This document shows positions 1-9,138 of a stretch of 62,465 bases of DNA, in pieces. A model generated the notes under the pieces. That model saw only the letters and a list, made by a program, of their open reading frames with translations, was not told where the DNA came from and did not search any database. The stretch comes from an uncultured Bdellovibrionales bacterium (GTDB taxonomy: Bacteria > Patescibacteriota > Minisyncoccia > Moranbacterales > UBA2206): positions 4,985 to 67,449 of the forward strand of contig CAZWRY010000004.1 in assembly GCA_964636505.1 (NCBI GenBank). The letters run 5' to 3'. Numbering within the stretch: the stretch's first letter is position 1; each line of letters starts with the position of its first letter. The translations under genes were made by a program, and so were the position numbers.

Positions 1-870
1 CCCCCTATAAGGTATTGCACTCCTTTTTATTAACTCTGTTTGATGTGTTTTAATCTCAACCAAACAAATTGAACTAATCATGCCTGCAGTTTTTAGAAGT
101 CCATCCGCCCTCTTACCAGAATTATTAAAATCACTACCACTTACCACCTGCTCGAGTTTTTTTCCCTCTAATGGAGAGTTAAAAATAAAATTCAACCCAT
201 ATCCAAATATCCAAGGATTATTTTCGAAAAAAAATTGCCATACATCCTCTTTCTTGCTCTTTTTCCATTCGTTCATTTGTTGCTCAAAAAATTCTTTGTC
301 CGTCAAAAGTCTTGAGAATATCTCCAGTTGTTTTTTTCTGTATCCTAATGCAACGATATCAGCTTTAGTAATTTTATTTTGAGCAAACTCGAAAAAAAAG
401 TCGAGGTCTGGATTTTTCGATAAAAACTCCTTAACCTTCCTTATTTCGTCGTCTTCGACTCTTGACTTGTCATCACTACTAAAATCCAAATAAGGCATGG
501 ACTCTATAAAATCCTTAAGTATTCGAATCTCAAATGGATTAAAGGAAAAAGATGTCTCAGATGAACCACTAAGAGATGAGAATTTTTGTATGACTAACTG
601 AATAATTCCCTTATTATCCTCAAACACTTTAGCTTTTACTTGTTGCCTGCCCTTATGCGTAACTCTCAGCACAGTTTCTCCCCTAAGACTCATCTCTGTA
701 ATACCATCTTCCCCATCAATCACCTTTGTTACGAATCTGAGACCCCTTTTCGAGCCATCAGGTCGCTTACCAAAAAAACGTTTACTTATATAAGTCTTCC
801 CTGTGAGCCTTCCTTTAAAATAATCAGCTTCTGTAAACTCATCTTCATTTTTGGAAATCCCTGGTGACAT
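1..870 (-). CDS. sduA: Shedu-family anti-phage nuclease (DUF4263), 5' part; runs off the window edge
   Basis: Manual translation from ATG at 870 gives 290 open codons: MSPGISKNEDEFTEADYFKGRLTGKTYISKRF...EDVWQFFFENNPWIFGYGL...GKRADGLLKTAG...ICLVEIKTHQTELIKRSAIPYRG. The WQxFFExNxWIFGYGL and D...EIK motifs match the Shedu PD-(D/E)xK core as I recall it. Absent from the ORF track because no stop lies in the window. Confidence 0.8.
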   Translation of the reverse strand, partial: MSPGISKNEDEFTEADYFKGRLTGKTYISKRFFGKRPDGSKRGLRFVTKVIDGEDGITEMSLRGETVLRVTHKGRQQVKAKVFEDNKGIIQLVIQKFSSLSGSSETSFSFNPFEIRILKDFIESMPYLDFSSDDKSRVEDDEIRKVKEFLSKNPDLDFFFEFAQNKITKADIVALGYRKKQLEIFSRLLTDKEFFEQQMNEWKKSKKEDVWQFFFENNPWIFGYGLNFIFNSPLEGKKLEQVVSGSDFNNSGKRADGLLKTAGMISSICLVEIKTHQTELIKRSAIPYRG

Positions 871-970: not shown

Positions 971-1059
971 CAAAAAACACCTCATACGAAGTGCTTTCAG
1001 TCTACAGTAAGACGATAAAATTAATCGCCGCTTATTGCGATTAATCCTTTGTGTTTATT
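971..1059 (-). repeat. Direct repeat copy 1 (hairpins plus terminator-like end)
   Basis: Shares identical 21-nt (995-1015 = 2367-2387) and 26-nt (1023-1048 = 2395-2420) blocks with copy 2. Confidence 0.9.
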
Positions 1060-2307: not shown

Positions 2308-2343
2308 ATATTTCAAAAATATTTTTATAATTAAATTATAACA

Positions 2344-2432
2344 CAAAAAAACACCTTTTCAGGTGTTTTCAGTCTACAGTAAGACGACAATAAAAATCGC
2401 CGCTTATTGCGATTAATCCTAATATGTTTATT
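2344..2432 (-). repeat. Direct repeat copy 2, ending in an intrinsic terminator (aaaacacc-tgaaaa-ggtgtttt-ttt)
   Basis: Matches 971-1059; hairpin plus T-run on the minus strand. Confidence 0.9.
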
Positions 2433-2565
2433 TGTTCTGAGCCATTGCTTACCCAATTGGTAAACAAAGTTTTACTTTGAGCCTAAGCTCAAGGCAAACG
2501 ACCGTATAGATTAGTCTGCTGTCCGAAGACAACAGAGTTCACCGTAACTCCCTAGAAAGGAGGTG
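2344..2565 (-). ncRNA. Structured non-coding segment starting with an anti-Shine-Dalgarno (CACCTCCTTTCTAGGGAG); resembles a 16S rRNA 3' end/trailer without the 16S gene
   Basis: Minus strand has CACCTCCTTTCT (2565-2554), then hairpins ctgttgtc-TTCG-gacagcag, ttgagc-ttag-gctcaa, ttacc-aatt-gggtaa, aatcgc-N8-gcgatt and a terminator. The identity is inferred. Confidence 0.45.
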
Positions 2566-2692
2566 TTTGAGAACGAATAGACTCGCGTAAAATCGGGCTT
2601 TTTTCTTCAGCTATTCCCTAGAAATAATTGTTAAATTTCACAGTTGCATTCTAGGATAGTATTGGGAAGTTAGCAAATTAGTTATCCCCTAT

Positions 2693-4639
2693 TTATTTCT
2701 GAAGTTTATCTATCGTCAGCGGACCGACAAACCCGGTTTGAGGCAATCCATTTTGAGCCTGAAATTTCCTTACCGCTTCAGTTGTAATCGGACCATAAAT
2801 TCCGGTAATATATTGAGAATCAAGCAATTCCAGCTGATTGAGTTTCTTTTGAATATTTTTGACTCCTTCAGTTGTCCCAGAATCAAAATCCGTGCCGTTC
2901 ACCAAGCCTCCGTTTTCGCTTGAACCGAAAGATAAGTTATCTAAATTTATTCGTTTATCAGCTTCTTCCGTATCAGCCCCTGGGTTAGTGACATATATTT
3001 TTCTCTTGTGATCGGTTTGGATTTCCATGAGTTTATCTAAGCAAAATTTAGCCACTATTTTCTGGCTGGATTTTTTGCTAACAGAGGAAGCTTTTTTGTT
3101 GCCGATTTTGACTTCTGCATCTTTGTCAAAATGTTTTCCTTTTATCGTAAGCTTGATCTTTTCACTGCAACTTCCATTATTGTCGATATATTTATATGCT
3201 TTCCAAGAAGTAATTTTTGCTTTTCGATCTTGTTCTTCATTTGAATTTGACTGATCTGCTTCATCTCCCTCATCCTCACCGGATTCTCCAGTCGTTCTGA
3301 AATTCCAAGTTGTTTTGTCGGAAATCCCGGCATAAAAATCAAAAGACTCGGTGTAAAAAGTGTCCGCATCGATTTGGATGTAAAAGTCGGTTCCTTCTTG
3401 AAAATTTTCGCCCGGATTTATTGTGACCAAATTTCCATCAATTATTACTGTACCTCCGATTGCTTGTTTCTCCCAGGTTTCACCTTCATCAGATGAAAAA
3501 TAGACATTTTCGCTAGAAAATATGGACAAAATAGATCCGTCTTGACTCAGTGCGCAGCCGCTCCACCATCCTGTATACAAATCACTACTCCAGTTTTCGC
3601 CTCCATCAATCGAAATAAAACTGCCTACGGAACCGTTAGCCAAAAGATGAGACCCGTTGTTATCCGTTGCGACATACCAGCCTTCAGACATTAAAGGAGT
3701 TGGGTCATTAAAATCCCAGTTTGATCCGCCATCGGTAGACACATAAACTCCGCCTCCGGTATTACTGACTGTTCCCAATATTATAGTTGATCCATCATCA
3801 TCCAGATCAGCCGATTGCCAAGAAAAACTATCGGAACTGGGAGGGCTGGGATTCAATTTGGTCCAAGAAGATCCTTTGTTATATGAAACATATACGCCTA
3901 CGCTATTATTGCTAGACCCTGCTAAAAGTACTGATCCGTCTCCATCAGAAGAAACCACATCCCAACTTTTGTCGGATACTCCGTTAGGAATAGATTCTGT
4001 CCAAGTCGCTCCGCTATCTTCGGAAATATAGACTTTGTCCTGCCAAGCTCCAACTATCAATACGGAGCCATCGTTATCGGAAGCAACAACTTGCCAATTT
4101 TTAGTAACTCCCTCTCCTGCCGGATATCTGGTTGTCCAGTGCTCACCTCCGTCGGTTGAAGTATAGACATAATCACCGTTAGCTACAGCCACCATTTTTA
4201 ATCCGTCATCGCTTATTGCCGCGCCATTCCAACTCGCTCCCTCAACAGGAGCCACTTCGGACCAGGAAGAACCTCCGTCGGAAGATACAAAAATCTTGCC
4301 TGAATTATCAGCCACAATCCAATTGGTGCCGTCGAGATCCGAAGCTACGCTTCGATAATCGGAACTTGAATTGACAGGAATAGTTTCTGCCGTTGAATCA
4401 TCGGATGCTTTTTTAATTTCAATATTTCCGGAATTCGTGGAAACTCCTTCCGAAAAAGTCATTGTTAAGTTTGAATTAACAGGAACATCAACCGCTCCGT
4501 CTTGGGGAGAATATTCAGTAACAGTCAACGCCGCGCAGACATTAGCTGCGAAAAAGAAATTGATCCAAAGGAAAGTAAGAGCAATTGCTGTAAAAATCGA
4601 ATATGCCAGAATACTTTTTCGGATATTTTTTGTTTTCAT
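2693..4639 (-). CDS. Secreted surface protein: Ig-like (Big_5-type) domain, BNR/Asp-box propeller, IPT-like domain and C-terminal peptidoglycan-binding domain
   Basis: Signal/TM segment, repeated SxDGGxxW Asp-boxes, and C-terminal GIYGPITTEAVRKFQAQNGLPQTGFVGPLT (PG_binding_1-like). Confidence 0.75.
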   Translation of the reverse strand: MKTKNIRKSILAYSIFTAIALTFLWINFFFAANVCAALTVTEYSPQDGAVDVPVNSNLTMTFSEGVSTNSGNIEIKKASDDSTAETIPVNSSSDYRSVASDLDGTNWIVADNSGKIFVSSDGGSSWSEVAPVEGASWNGAAISDDGLKMVAVANGDYVYTSTDGGEHWTTRYPAGEGVTKNWQVVASDNDGSVLIVGAWQDKVYISEDSGATWTESIPNGVSDKSWDVVSSDGDGSVLLAGSSNNSVGVYVSYNKGSSWTKLNPSPPSSDSFSWQSADLDDDGSTIILGTVSNTGGGVYVSTDGGSNWDFNDPTPLMSEGWYVATDNNGSHLLANGSVGSFISIDGGENWSSDLYTGWWSGCALSQDGSILSIFSSENVYFSSDEGETWEKQAIGGTVIIDGNLVTINPGENFQEGTDFYIQIDADTFYTESFDFYAGISDKTTWNFRTTGESGEDEGDEADQSNSNEEQDRKAKITSWKAYKYIDNNGSCSEKIKLTIKGKHFDKDAEVKIGNKKASSVSKKSSQKIVAKFCLDKLMEIQTDHKRKIYVTNPGADTEEADKRINLDNLSFGSSENGGLVNGTDFDSGTTEGVKNIQKKLNQLELLDSQYITGIYGPITTEAVRKFQAQNGLPQTGFVGPLTIDKLQK

Positions 4640-5002: not shown

Positions 5003-5636
5003 TTATTCAATAAAAATGCCTTTAATTTTCTTCATATTGTCAATTTGACCTAGAGCGTACTTGAAATACTCTTTTTTATTTTTAAATTGTCCAAGAATAG
5101 AATCCCTCTCCAATATTAAACTCGGTTTTTTATTCGTATATTCCTTGAAGCTCGACCATGCGTATTTTTCTGTTTTTGAGAACCCATGAATCTCACAATT
5201 GCAATTAACATATGCTGAAGTATATAACAGTTGCTCATTAGTACTTATGTGCGTCGCCTTAAATCTTCCTTGAAAAATAACCCCTGAATGCTTATATTTT
5301 CTATTAAAATACATTGCATACCCGGTGCATATTTTTTTCATAAATGTGGCTACGCCGCCTAGTTTCCTTTCTCGGAGTATCGGAGTATTAGATGAAAATG
5401 ATTTGAATTCAAGCAATATGCTACGACGACAACGAGCCTCTCTTTTTCTTTAGGATAAGCATCTATTCCTGCCTCTCGCAAATCATTTATAACCCAACTT
5501 GGCTTTTCCGTATTGAAATCAAGTAATCAATAAAGCGCAGAAAGTCCTTTTCTTGAGTAAAAATATTTTTCTTTTCTACTCCGCGATTACAAATATGATA
5601 ATATTCTCCAATCGCAAATTCTATTTTCCTCCTCAT
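5003..5636 (-). pseudogene. REP-associated/IS200-like HUH (Y1) transposase with two frameshifts
   Basis: Three frames join into MRRKIEFAIGEYYHICNRGVEKKNIF.. / DFNTEKP..AYCLNSNHFHLILR (HUH) / ERKLGGVATFMKKICTGYAMYFNRKYKHSGVIFQGRFKA..YVNCN..WSSF. Shifts lie near 5520 and at an 8-bp tandem duplication (cggagtat x2, 5373-5388). Confidence 0.85.
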
Positions 5637-5696
5637 AAACAAATACCATCATTTCTTTTGTTTTTAGTCTAAAAAATAAAAAAAGTAAGCTCAAGG

Positions 5697-5768
5697 CTCC
5701 GCGACCAGGACTCGAACCTGGAACCAATTGATTAACAGTCAACTGCTCTACCATTGAGCTATCGCGGA
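5697..5768 (-). tRNA. tRNA-Asn(GTT)
   Basis: tccgcgatagctcaatggtagagcagttgactGTTaatcaattggttccaggttcgagtcctggtcgcggag folds as a cloverleaf; CCA not encoded. Confidence 0.95.
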
Positions 5769-7323: not shown

Positions 7324-9138
7324 CTATTCTTTATTTTTCTCATTGATTTCTCCAAGAATTCGGCTGGCTTCTTGGCACAAAAACGTCACTGCTTCCCTGT
7401 CTTTTCTTTCCTCCGCTAATTTCAGATCATGTTGGATTTTTTCCAACTCTGCTTTCTTGTTTTCTTTTTTGATTTCTTCCAGAATTTTCACAAATTCCTT
7501 TTCCGGATTATCCACCATGATTTCTTCAATATTATTATTCAAGTCAAACCGATATTTTTTTTCAAAAAATATTTTCTCTACTTTTTTTTTGTTTTCCTCT
7601 TGGCTGATGCTGGAAAGAAGATTATCTAAATTAAAACCGAGCTTCTCCCCGTTTTCAAGCATAAATTTTAACAAGGCCTCTTTTTGAAAAACAGGATTTT
7701 CTTTTTCCTCGTTAAAAGCTTTCTTCCAAACATTTTTATAAACCAACATAAGCCCAATAATTTCTTGGACTAGAGTTTCTTTCTTGGTTTTAGGAGAAAA
7801 AGTCTCCTCGCTTTTCACGCTTCCCCCTGAAGTGTTCGTTGTTGTACTCTTAATATTAGCTTTTTTGAGCATATCCGTCAATATACCTTCTTTCACTTCT
7901 ACAACTTCTGCTAGCTTCTTTAGCCAATGACTTTTGGTTATTTCATTGGTCAAATTCCCAATCATTTCCAGAATTTCATCAGTAATTTTATTTTTCCCTT
8001 CAACTTCTTTTTTGTTATGCTTGGTTAGATTCTTTTGAAAAAAATATTCCATAGCTTCTGTTGCACTTTCAATGGATTTTTTCATCGCTTCTGGATTATT
8101 TTTGGCCAGTTCTGCTACATCTTTTCCGGACGGCAGTTCAACTACTCGAGCTTGAACATCTTTTTCAAAACAGAGTTTCATGCTTTTTTTAGTCGCGGCT
8201 TCACCAGCATTATCCATGTCAAAACACATTTCAACTTTATTAGTGTATCTTTTGATAACGCCCAAATGATCACTCGTCAGGGCTGTTCCAGAAACAGCTA
8301 CTACATTTTTGAAACCTGCTTGATTGGCCGCCAAAACATCCAGATTACCTTCTACCAAAAGAACTTCATTTTTCTGTTTAATCTCACTTTTAGCTTTATC
8401 GATACCATAAAGAACCTTGCTTTTATGATAAACTTCCGTTTCCGGAGTATTAATATATTTGGCTTGTGATTCATCTTGTCCAGGAGTCACTCTGGCACTA
8501 AAACCGACTATCTTCCCATTTGTATCAGCCACCGGAAACATAATTCTTTCCCTGAACCTGTCATAAAATCCCGATCCGCCTTTCTTTTTTTCTGACTTGA
8601 CCAAAAGCCCAGCTCTTTCTATTTCTGGAACACCGTATCCTCGACTTGTTAAAAATTTCAAAATGTTCTCCCAGCCTTTGGGAGCATAACCCAAGCGAAA
8701 TTCTCGAATCGTTTCATCTTTTAATCCTCTATCTCGTAAATAGTTCAGAATTTTGACTTTGCCTGGACCTTCCCAAAGCTGATATTCATAAAATTTGGTA
8801 GTAATTTCCAAAATCTCAAAAATTCTGTTTTTGTTAACTTCTGATTTTCCATCATATTTTTTTAATTCAACTCCGGCCTTATCCGCCAAAAGCTTCAGAG
8901 CCTCTCTGAATTCCAGTCCTTCCATTTCCATTACAAAACCGAAAATGTCCCCTCCTTTTTGGCAGCCAAAGCAATGCCAAATCTGTTTTTCTTCACTTAC
9001 CATAAAAGATGGGCTTTTTTCATTATGAAAAGGACAACGAGCTTTGAAGTTGGTGCCCGCCTTGTCTAAACGGATATATTCGCCCAAAACATCGACTATA
9101 TTAAGCCTATTTTTGATTTCCTCGACATCAGAATTCAT
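7324..9138 (-). CDS. dnaG: DNA primase
   Basis: CPFHNEKSPSF zinc finger; Toprim EGNLDV and FDMDNAG. Confidence 0.97.
   Translation of the reverse strand: MNSDVEEIKNRLNIVDVLGEYIRLDKAGTNFKARCPFHNEKSPSFMVSEEKQIWHCFGCQKGGDIFGFVMEMEGLEFREALKLLADKAGVELKKYDGKSEVNKNRIFEILEITTKFYEYQLWEGPGKVKILNYLRDRGLKDETIREFRLGYAPKGWENILKFLTSRGYGVPEIERAGLLVKSEKKKGGSGFYDRFRERIMFPVADTNGKIVGFSARVTPGQDESQAKYINTPETEVYHKSKVLYGIDKAKSEIKQKNEVLLVEGNLDVLAANQAGFKNVVAVSGTALTSDHLGVIKRYTNKVEMCFDMDNAGEAATKKSMKLCFEKDVQARVVELPSGKDVAELAKNNPEAMKKSIESATEAMEYFFQKNLTKHNKKEVEGKNKITDEILEMIGNLTNEITKSHWLKKLAEVVEVKEGILTDMLKKANIKSTTTNTSGGSVKSEETFSPKTKKETLVQEIIGLMLVYKNVWKKAFNEEKENPVFQKEALLKFMLENGEKLGFNLDNLLSSISQEENKKKVEKIFFEKKYRFDLNNNIEEIMVDNPEKEFVKILEEIKKENKKAELEKIQHDLKLAEERKDREAVTFLCQEASRILGEINEKNKE

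Follow-up and report, generated by a model that had tools for sequence, protein, structure and literature searches.

The window analyzed here, a 62,465-nt stretch of a 67,449-bp contig (CAZWRY010000004.1) from an uncultured bacterium assigned to the Moranbacterales (Patescibacteriota), contains what looks like the last bases of a 16S rRNA gene and the trailer that follows them, with no 16S gene attached. This element (hereafter, the orphan) lies within a 386-nt intergenic gap, and both flanking genes are encoded on the minus strand, as is the orphan itself. The upstream gene (2693-4639) encodes a 648-aa BNR/Sortilin-repeat protein with a peptidoglycan-binding domain, and the downstream gene (1120-2307) encodes a 395-aa PD40-repeat protein.

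Read along the minus strand, the orphan begins with the last 12 nt of 16S rRNA (CACCUCCUUUCU, 2554-2565), the anti-Shine-Dalgarno (anti-SD) tail, with neither helix 45 nor any other 16S sequence upstream. The anti-SD sequence CACCTCCTTTCT has a single exact match in the window (2554-2565), and the full 18-mer covering the 16S end and the trailer start (CACCTCCTTTCTAGGGAG) occupies 2565..2548. The junction at 2565 reads ...TTCTCAAACACCTCC..., so that the bases 5' of the tail are ...cgttctcaaa, as opposed to GGAT or GAAT in true 16S genes. The proximal trailer (2432..2547) consists of a GGUGA segment (2537-2545) that pairs with CACC, a 9-bp hairpin with a C(UUCG)G loop (H1, 2515-2536), a GGTCG motif between H1 and H2 (2497-2506), and the hairpins H2 (2475-2494) and H3 (2445-2467). 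It is followed by a distal module (copy A, 2344..2431) made up of AGGATTAATCGCAATAAGCGGCGATT, which forms hairpin H4 (2395-2414), then TCGTCTTACTGTAGACTGAAA and a rho-independent terminator (2345-2370). An extended -10 (TGTGTTATAAT, 2335..2345) for the PD40-repeat gene sits directly 3' of the terminator. The 231-nt stretch 2340-2570 folds at -72.8 kcal/mol, compared with -49.9 ± 4.5 kcal/mol for shuffled sequences (z = -5.15), and none of 200 shuffles folded as well.

An earlier sequence-only reading of this DNA had described the minus-strand anti-SD, the hairpins (one UUCG-looped), the terminator, and the upstream ctcaaa in place of the ggat of 16S, and all of these are present. It had placed the feature at 2344-2624; the element is indeed there, but a second copy of the distal module (copy B, 972..1059, ~88 nt including the terminator, 84% identical to copy A) lies on the same strand just after the PD40-repeat gene. 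With copy A before it and copy B behind it, this gene is flanked by direct repeats, and copy B would terminate it. The distal module also ends gene cassettes in three related contigs (L133, L134, and L141).

The 18-mer was scanned against one genome per species, and the matches listed comprise 120 genome stretches with 123 occurrences. Among these, 122 of the 123 are true 16S ends that follow a recognisable helix 45, from many phyla including Patescibacteria, and the preceding bases are GGAT in 118 cases and GAAT in 4. The single non-16S context among them is a window-like one in a metagenome-assembled genome (MAG) of the Parcubacteria group (L035). Metagenomes were scanned for the tail joined to the first 11 bases of the trailer, which gave 16 loci with 17 matches, 14 of which follow a 16S gene; Rfam confirmed the 16S gene in L133, L134, and L138. 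The similarity extends well into the trailer. Window 2565-2395 and the trailer behind the real 16S gene of L130/L138 share 95.3% identity over 171 nt (95% for the proximal trailer), and the window trailer is 87% identical over 131 nt to that of L133/L139. The layout GGGAG-GGTGA-hairpin-GGTCG-hairpins-terminator is common to the real trailers of many Patescibacteria, and the same architecture was seen in L103, L097, L048, L133, L134, L152, and others. Comparison with the rRNA trailers of the clade thus supports the proposed identity as a 16S 3' end and trailer.

Structure prediction pointed the same way. RNAalifold on eight trailers showed compensatory changes at 14 base pairs of H1 and H2, an invariant H3, and a further invariant hairpin in which CACC/GGUG and UCCUU/AGGGA are paired. 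The multi-hairpin segment of the window is an inherited pre-rRNA structure, and the consensus model suggests that the pre-16S trailer masks the anti-SD in these lineages. The distal trailer segment pairs with the 16S leader in real operons, as exemplified by L133, where AATCGCAATTTATTGCGGTTAGTCCTT in the leader is complementary to AAGGACTAGCCACAATAGCTTACGATT in the trailer. The corresponding 5' leader strand, the complement of the AATCGCAATAAGCGGCGATT-type sequence, was not found elsewhere in the window, which holds only two same-strand copies. With no 16S body and no leader partner, the orphan trailer cannot join in 16S maturation here. Its hairpins are ordinary processing and terminator structures of a pre-16S trailer, which today most likely only terminate the upstream BNR/peptidoglycan-binding gene.

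The missing 16S body is not close by. Rfam at gathering threshold detected no rRNA in the window, only three tRNAs, which agrees with the earlier remark that no 16S gene lies upstream (none in 60 kb). An independent Logan contig (L121, from SRR35116082) begins at window position 2361, inside the terminator, and runs downstream; its 11.2 kb of downstream sequence likewise contain no rRNA by Rfam. The gene order on L121 is PD40, Shedu SduA_C, UmuC-like, UmuD-like, SRAP, and a 297-aa Xer-like tyrosine recombinase (L121 5486-6379), the last 5.4 kb downstream of the orphan and the recombinase nearest to it. More than 900 homologs of this recombinase were found, the best 120 of which share 59-86% identity with it, several being labelled Moranbacteria or Moraniibacteriota; for Moranbacteria orthologs the identity is 60-86%. 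The protein is Xer-like, yet it scores below every NCBIfam equivalog cut-off, including those for XerC, XerD, XerA, and the integron integrase.

We compared five distinct loci from relatives that carry an ortholog of the recombinase (L150/151, L152, L153/154, L155, and L156/157). Each has a complete 16S gene on the strand of the ortholog, ending 0.4-3.5 kb upstream of it and separated from it by zero to two genes, and the genes upstream of 16S differ in each of them. Because the real 16S gene ends upstream of the ortholog in these five relatives, the orphan is the positional counterpart of a real 16S trailer, and we are highly confident that it represents a 16S tail and trailer in positional orthology with the real trailers of its relatives. 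In L133, a remnant of the recombinase gene directly follows the real trailer; there, an open reading frame (ORF) at 7614-8504 fuses ~30 N-terminal residues of the recombinase to an unrelated membrane protein and looks like a deletion scar.

Further genes accompany the recombinase. It is joined downstream of 16S, in all five loci, by a ~230-aa protein (two smaller genes in L153), a second integrase, and an N6-methyltransferase. The second integrase and phage-like genes (methyltransferase, ParB, TerL) follow in four of the five relatives. ParB and TerL are both encoded in L150/L151, L152, and L155, and a third integrase in L150/L151 and L152; the span of L156 that was read contains the second integrase, a Toprim-domain protein, and the methyltransferase. 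A LOOT RNA (Rfam RF03000, 90.8 bits) follows the third integrase in L150 and L151. The block 3' of 16S (L150 10001-19924 and its counterparts) is largely conserved across the Moranbacteria loci compared. On the orphan's own side, the genes between the trailer and the recombinase (window 1-870 and L121 1492-6379: Shedu SduA_C, UmuC-like with an IMS domain, UmuD/LexA-like with an S24 domain, and SRAP, up to the Xer-like recombinase) are island-like cargo.

In place of the 16S body, the window contains the BNR gene, a truncated cation-ATPase fragment, broken ORFs, a tRNA-Asn gene, rpoD, and dnaG. At the locus of a BNR ortholog with 69% identity (L143), the gene is followed by an ordinary terminator and pyrF/pyrE, with no orphan. 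The segment 4732-5642 (minus strand), directly after tRNA-Asn, looks like decayed DNA. A 92-aa ORF within it matched only the C-terminal end of P-type cation ATPases, which indicates a truncated gene, and the short ORFs 5003-5416, 5359-5481, and 5487-5642 are in different frames with no Pfam or NCBIfam match. The ORFs of 5003-5642 were also considered as a broken Y1/RAYT transposase, for which Pfam and NCBIfam gave no support. Four Logan contigs from four samples with identical DnaG (L122-L125) all end at the 3' end of tRNA-Asn (~5698), a pattern that suggests differences between strains or the start of a repeat at this point. Two copies of the 12-mer GCCTTGAGCTTA lie on the minus strand of the window, one directly 3' of tRNA-Asn (5686-5697) and one as the 5' half of trailer hairpin H2 (2484-2495); none of 100 shuffles reached two copies, and contig L124 ends inside the copy on the tRNA side. 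The pair may reflect a microhomology junction, or one copy may be what is left of an older piece of trailer.

The sequence-only reading had named an assembly chimera at ~2565 as an alternative. This would be a chimeric or repeat-induced misjoin in the 67-kb contig, in which the true genome would read 16S-trailer-PD40 and the BNR side would come from another place or strain. The trailer does belong to a repeat family, and the window itself has two copies of its distal module. The Logan contigs break at 2361 (SRR35116082) and, in the four samples, at tRNA-Asn, so the 3.3 kb between these points were not independently assembled. No other recorded contig encodes the identical BNR protein, and the 12-mer common to the tRNA-Asn flank and H2 also speaks for a misjoin. 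A repeat misjoin, however, would not create the left junction ctcaaa|CACCTCC. Such a junction requires either genuine reads or a k-mer common to both sides, and the one word they share there is 10 nt long and separated from it by a 48-nt gap. Both sides are present in the same sample, the GC content is even across the junction at 2565, and comparable orphan junctions occur in at least six independent assemblies. We therefore regard a chimera as unlikely.

Orphans of this kind were found at six further loci (L127, L130/L142, L134, L141, L035, and L146). In all of them, homology to 16S starts at (A/G)ATCACCTCC, where helix 45 gives way to the single-stranded tail, and no sequence upstream of the tail was conserved among the orphans compared. 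The orphan of L127 is 87% identical to that of the window over 229 nt and lies 194 nt downstream of an integrase gene. In L134, the orphan is 1.5 kb behind the real 16S end, with a gene for a transporter-like membrane protein in between, and its CCTCC has decayed to TTTCC; in L141, the distance to the real end is 4.9 kb. The 202-kb contig L130/L142 shows a tandem series, all in the same orientation: the real 16S gene and trailer, radical-SAM and other genes, a type-2 orphan, further genes, a type-1 orphan cut by an IS3 element, more genes, and finally a degenerate copy. An orphan of L130 lies 6.3 kb from the intact 16S end in direct orientation. Its type-2 (second) orphan is 80% identical over 425 nt to the orphan of L035, the homology starting exactly at AATCACCTCC, and has the architecture of the real L156 trailer, which is foreign to L130's own trailer; this points to import from another lineage. 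The type-2 unit is ~420 nt long and was found at L035 6830-7235, after trpS, and at L130 9508-9091, in the cassette array of this Moranbacteria-like contig. Some of its hairpins are swapped with pairing kept, and it ends in a conserved palindrome plus a CTACTCCG(C/T)TCC motif.

In IMG/VR, the 20-mer of anti-SD tail and trailer start occurs three times. A 49-kb viral contig (L146) has an orphan core 224 nt after an integrase gene in a non-16S context. The other two matches are real 16S tails at contig ends; behind one lies an integrase (L145), behind the other a prophage with a terminase (L144).

A rival explanation is a functional small RNA of ~290 nt that runs from a promoter-like site to the terminator (2345). 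As a mimic of the 16S tail, it would either sequester Shine-Dalgarno sequences or titrate 16S 3'-end-binding factors, for which Era, a protein that binds GAUCACCUCC, and YbeY are candidates. A sigma-70-like match (TTGCTA-17-TAGAAT, 2648..2676, minus strand, 9 of 12 consensus positions) lies ~85 nt before the tail, so that an independent transcript might start here, and together with the strong terminator it brackets the element. Such matches are nevertheless at chance density (three in the region versus 2.4 expected from shuffles), which makes this one weak evidence. The folding is very stable (the z score given above), most orphans start at the helix-45/tail boundary with AUCACCUCC intact, and the type-2 orphans retain their similarity, with pairing-preserving hairpin swaps, in distant contexts. 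Descent from a pre-rRNA trailer explains all of this structure, and the anti-SD is predicted to be paired in both the minimum-free-energy and the consensus structure, the hairpin concerned showing no variation among real trailers. In the window, A rather than U precedes CACC, and in the L134 orphan CCUCC is replaced by UUUCC. The lack of conserved sequence upstream of the tail and the absence of the element behind the same upstream gene in L143 are further points against an RNA gene. Rfam at gathering threshold assigned no family to the element, and at E-value thresholds it returned nothing beyond terminator-driven noise; the best match of the segment, a rimP leader (20.6 bits versus a threshold of 47, E = 0.77), was driven by the terminator. 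The speculation in the sequence-only reading that a free anti-SD RNA sequesters ribosome-binding sites (RBSs) thus found no support, with the anti-SD predicted to be paired and CCUCC lost in L134, and we think a functional small RNA very improbable.

A decayed second rRNA operon, in which a duplicated 16S gene was lost by ordinary deletion and only the promoter, the last bases, and the trailer were left, would account for the promoter-like site ~85 nt upstream of the tail and for a trailer that is complete with its terminator. The flank 2566-2692, however, is unlike the 16S leaders of relatives and lacks the leader strand that pairs with the distal trailer. Independent orphans share the deletion end point within 2 nt, which is unexpected from random deletions, and the orphan occupies the position of the relatives' single 16S gene, not a second locus. 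We consider such a decay highly unlikely.

As the sequence-only reading had noted, a 10-bp direct repeat is present: TCCCTAGAAA occurs exactly twice in the window (2549-2558 and 2615-2624), and two copies arose in only 3 of 100 shuffles. The downstream copy falls in TTTCTAGGGAG (2548..2558, minus strand) at the tail/trailer junction, the candidate right arm of a recombinase core site with CACCTCC as its putative 7-nt spacer. The upstream copy falls in the half-site-like TTTCTAGGGAA (2614..2624, minus strand), with a 48-nt gap before the tail. Equivalent upstream copies exist in the orphans of L127 (2952) and L035 (6777), and because TTTCTAGGGAG stands 52-64 nt upstream of CACCTCC in the window, L127, and L035, the repeat is non-random. 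In the orphans of L127, L130 (its first, L130-o1), and L141, the junction reads CTCCCACGAAT-CACCTCC-TTTCTAGGGAG, i.e., 11-nt inverted arms (8 of 11 positions matching) around a 7-nt spacer that is the anti-SD core.

A second 11-7-11 palindrome (hereafter, site 2), a candidate recombinase site, follows the terminator of the real trailers in L130 (TTCCCTGGAAA-TGGTTCA-ATTCTAGGGAA), L150 (TTGTCAGGAAA-TGTTTCG-TTTCCAGGGAG), and L152, and in L134 and L156 the right-arm motif of site 2 is at the same place. The 11-mer TTTCTAGGGAG (or TTYCYAGGGAG) equals one arm of the site 2 palindromes in L130, L150, and L152, and by this match the direct repeat of the window would be the right arm shared by site 2 and the junction. 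The homology of the two copies begins at opposite edges of the presumed overlap, in one at TTTCTAGGGA and in the other at the tail, just before or at CACCTCC. These positions appear to fit strand exchange by a tyrosine recombinase.

Taken together, we conclude that window 2344-2565 is probably a native 16S tail with its ~220-nt trailer, left as a recombination scar after loss of the 16S body. The native trailer would have stayed at the conserved locus while the 16S body was separated from it. The break at the tail would have been made by site-specific recombination, with CACCTCC as the overlap and TTTCTAGGGAG as one recombinase-binding arm, and the DNA from the 16S end to the recombinase gene would be a hot spot for cassette insertion in this clade, here filled with PD40, Shedu SduA, UmuC/UmuD, and SRAP genes. 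A recombination hot spot is supported by the tandem orphans with cassettes, the fixed left boundary, the adjoining integrases, and the position of the trailer upstream of the conserved recombinase. The earlier proposal of a captured rRNA trailer marking a recombination hotspot therefore stands as regards the hot spot, by comparison with relatives, but "captured" is probably wrong, as the trailer is more likely native and left in place. That a recombinase acted on the site, which recombinase this was, and what event removed the 16S gene are what we infer from these patterns; for site-specific recombination as the cause of the orphan, we see the balance as even or tipping slightly in favor.

Several points weigh against this explanation. 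The window lacks a pair of direct repeats of the attL/attR kind, as no 16S gene is within reach, and its left arm is poor (3 of 11 positions), so it is not a typical element-borne site; real 16S genes likewise have only a good right arm. Three orphans have the palindromic left arm by common descent, so that it amounts to roughly one observation, and the spacers of site 2 differ from CACCTCC, so that recombination between the two kinds of site need not occur. Many cassettes between the repeats have no integrase, and the conserved recombinase may be a housekeeping Xer enzyme whose nearness to 16S is plain synteny. Housekeeping genes (rpoD, dnaG, and pyk) lie upstream, which means that removal of 16S would have to be an inversion or translocation that cannot be reconstructed. 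The Logan contig starting at 2361 does not span the junction at 2565. Finally, no precedent for a 16S-tail attachment (att) site was found in the full-text literature searched, which is absence of evidence only.

A more ambitious scheme goes beyond the scar. It is conceivable, though we hold it only tentatively, that the 16S tail (CACCTCC with arm TTTCTAGGGAG) and the 11-7-11 palindrome after the trailer form the att site of a recombinase-driven cassette platform encoded beside 16S. Phages and integrase-less cassettes might then integrate at this site, every insertion supplying or duplicating a trailer mimic that keeps 16S maturation intact, a step that we regard as possible rather than probable. 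Such recombination could perhaps even part the sole 16S gene from its trailer, as in the window, and this we consider similarly doubtful.

Among known systems, the closest analogy is with the partial duplicates of tRNA or transfer-messenger RNA (tmRNA) 3' ends at the borders of genomic islands and prophages, the attL/attR sites of tyrosine integrases, of which the orphan would be a putative member at most. In both, a short copy of a stable-RNA 3' end lies downstream in direct orientation with foreign genes between (L130, L134, and L141), copies accrete in tandem, tyrosine recombinase genes are beside the sites (L127, L145, and L146), and the element-borne copy restores the 3' end of the gene. 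Here, in contrast, the target is the 16S tail with the anti-SD, the repeated unit includes a functional-looking trailer of 120-420 nt, many cassettes have no integrase of their own, and the window has no intact gene nearby.

The platforms of integrative mobile elements exploiting Xer (IMEX) at dif sites and of integrons, in which a Xer or IntI recombinase of the host neighbors a primary site and cassettes lacking an integrase form arrays, resemble these loci in other respects: the hot spot adjoins the gene of a Xer-like recombinase conserved in the clade, the trailer is followed by 11-7-11 palindromes, and zero to ~8 integrase-less cassettes lie between the 16S end and the recombinase gene. 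They differ in that the recombinase here is only a candidate actor, below the XerC/XerD/XerA and integron-integrase cut-offs, that no attC-like cassette ends are defined, and that the site overlaps an rRNA gene. With the pre-16S 3' external transcribed spacer, the orphan shares sequence homology, the conserved hairpins, the segment complementary to the leader of real operons, and a terminator such as accompanies 16S genes not linked to 23S, the arrangement of these Patescibacteria; unlike that spacer, it has no 16S body and no leader partner.

If this explanation is correct, the most conserved 20 bases of bacteria, the anti-SD tail and trailer start, would serve as an integration or recombination site in a lineage of the candidate phyla radiation, the 16S tail being used the way tRNA gene ends are elsewhere. 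This would explain the mosaic of cassettes, defence genes, and prophage remnants behind Moranbacteria 16S genes, the trailer-like, anti-SD-bearing repeats away from rRNA genes, and the difficulty of placing the 16S contigs of these genomes in assemblies and bins. An orphan anti-SD followed by hairpins in a MAG would then be likelier to be a recombination scar than a new regulatory RNA.

Other candidates were tried and rejected. ARAGORN found no tmRNA, and the window has no repeat arrays that would indicate a CRISPR/tracrRNA locus. The tail as the reverse complement of an RBS for a plus-strand gene was discarded, as the plus strand offers only a 7-codon ORF. A giant insertion inside 16S was likewise dropped, with no small-subunit rRNA sequence in the 62 kb plus 11 kb, as was a 16S-deleted operon with a retained leader, with no similarity to the leaders of L133, L048, and L103. 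For an island at tRNA-Asn, no tRNA 3' duplicate was found in L121. Synteny through the flanking proteins was of no use, the PD40 protein having no close homologs and the BNR-ortholog locus L143 lacking the element; the pyrF/pyrE genes of L143 are not related to the cassette genes of L130. A double match in Collinsella (L031) was an artefact of a scaffold gap. In two unrelated viral sequences (L147 798-817 and L148 4693-4712), a related 20-mer, ATCACCTCCTTTCTAAGGAG, is the reverse complement of a strong RBS between divergent genes, which shows that bare anti-SD matches can arise as RBS reverse complements.

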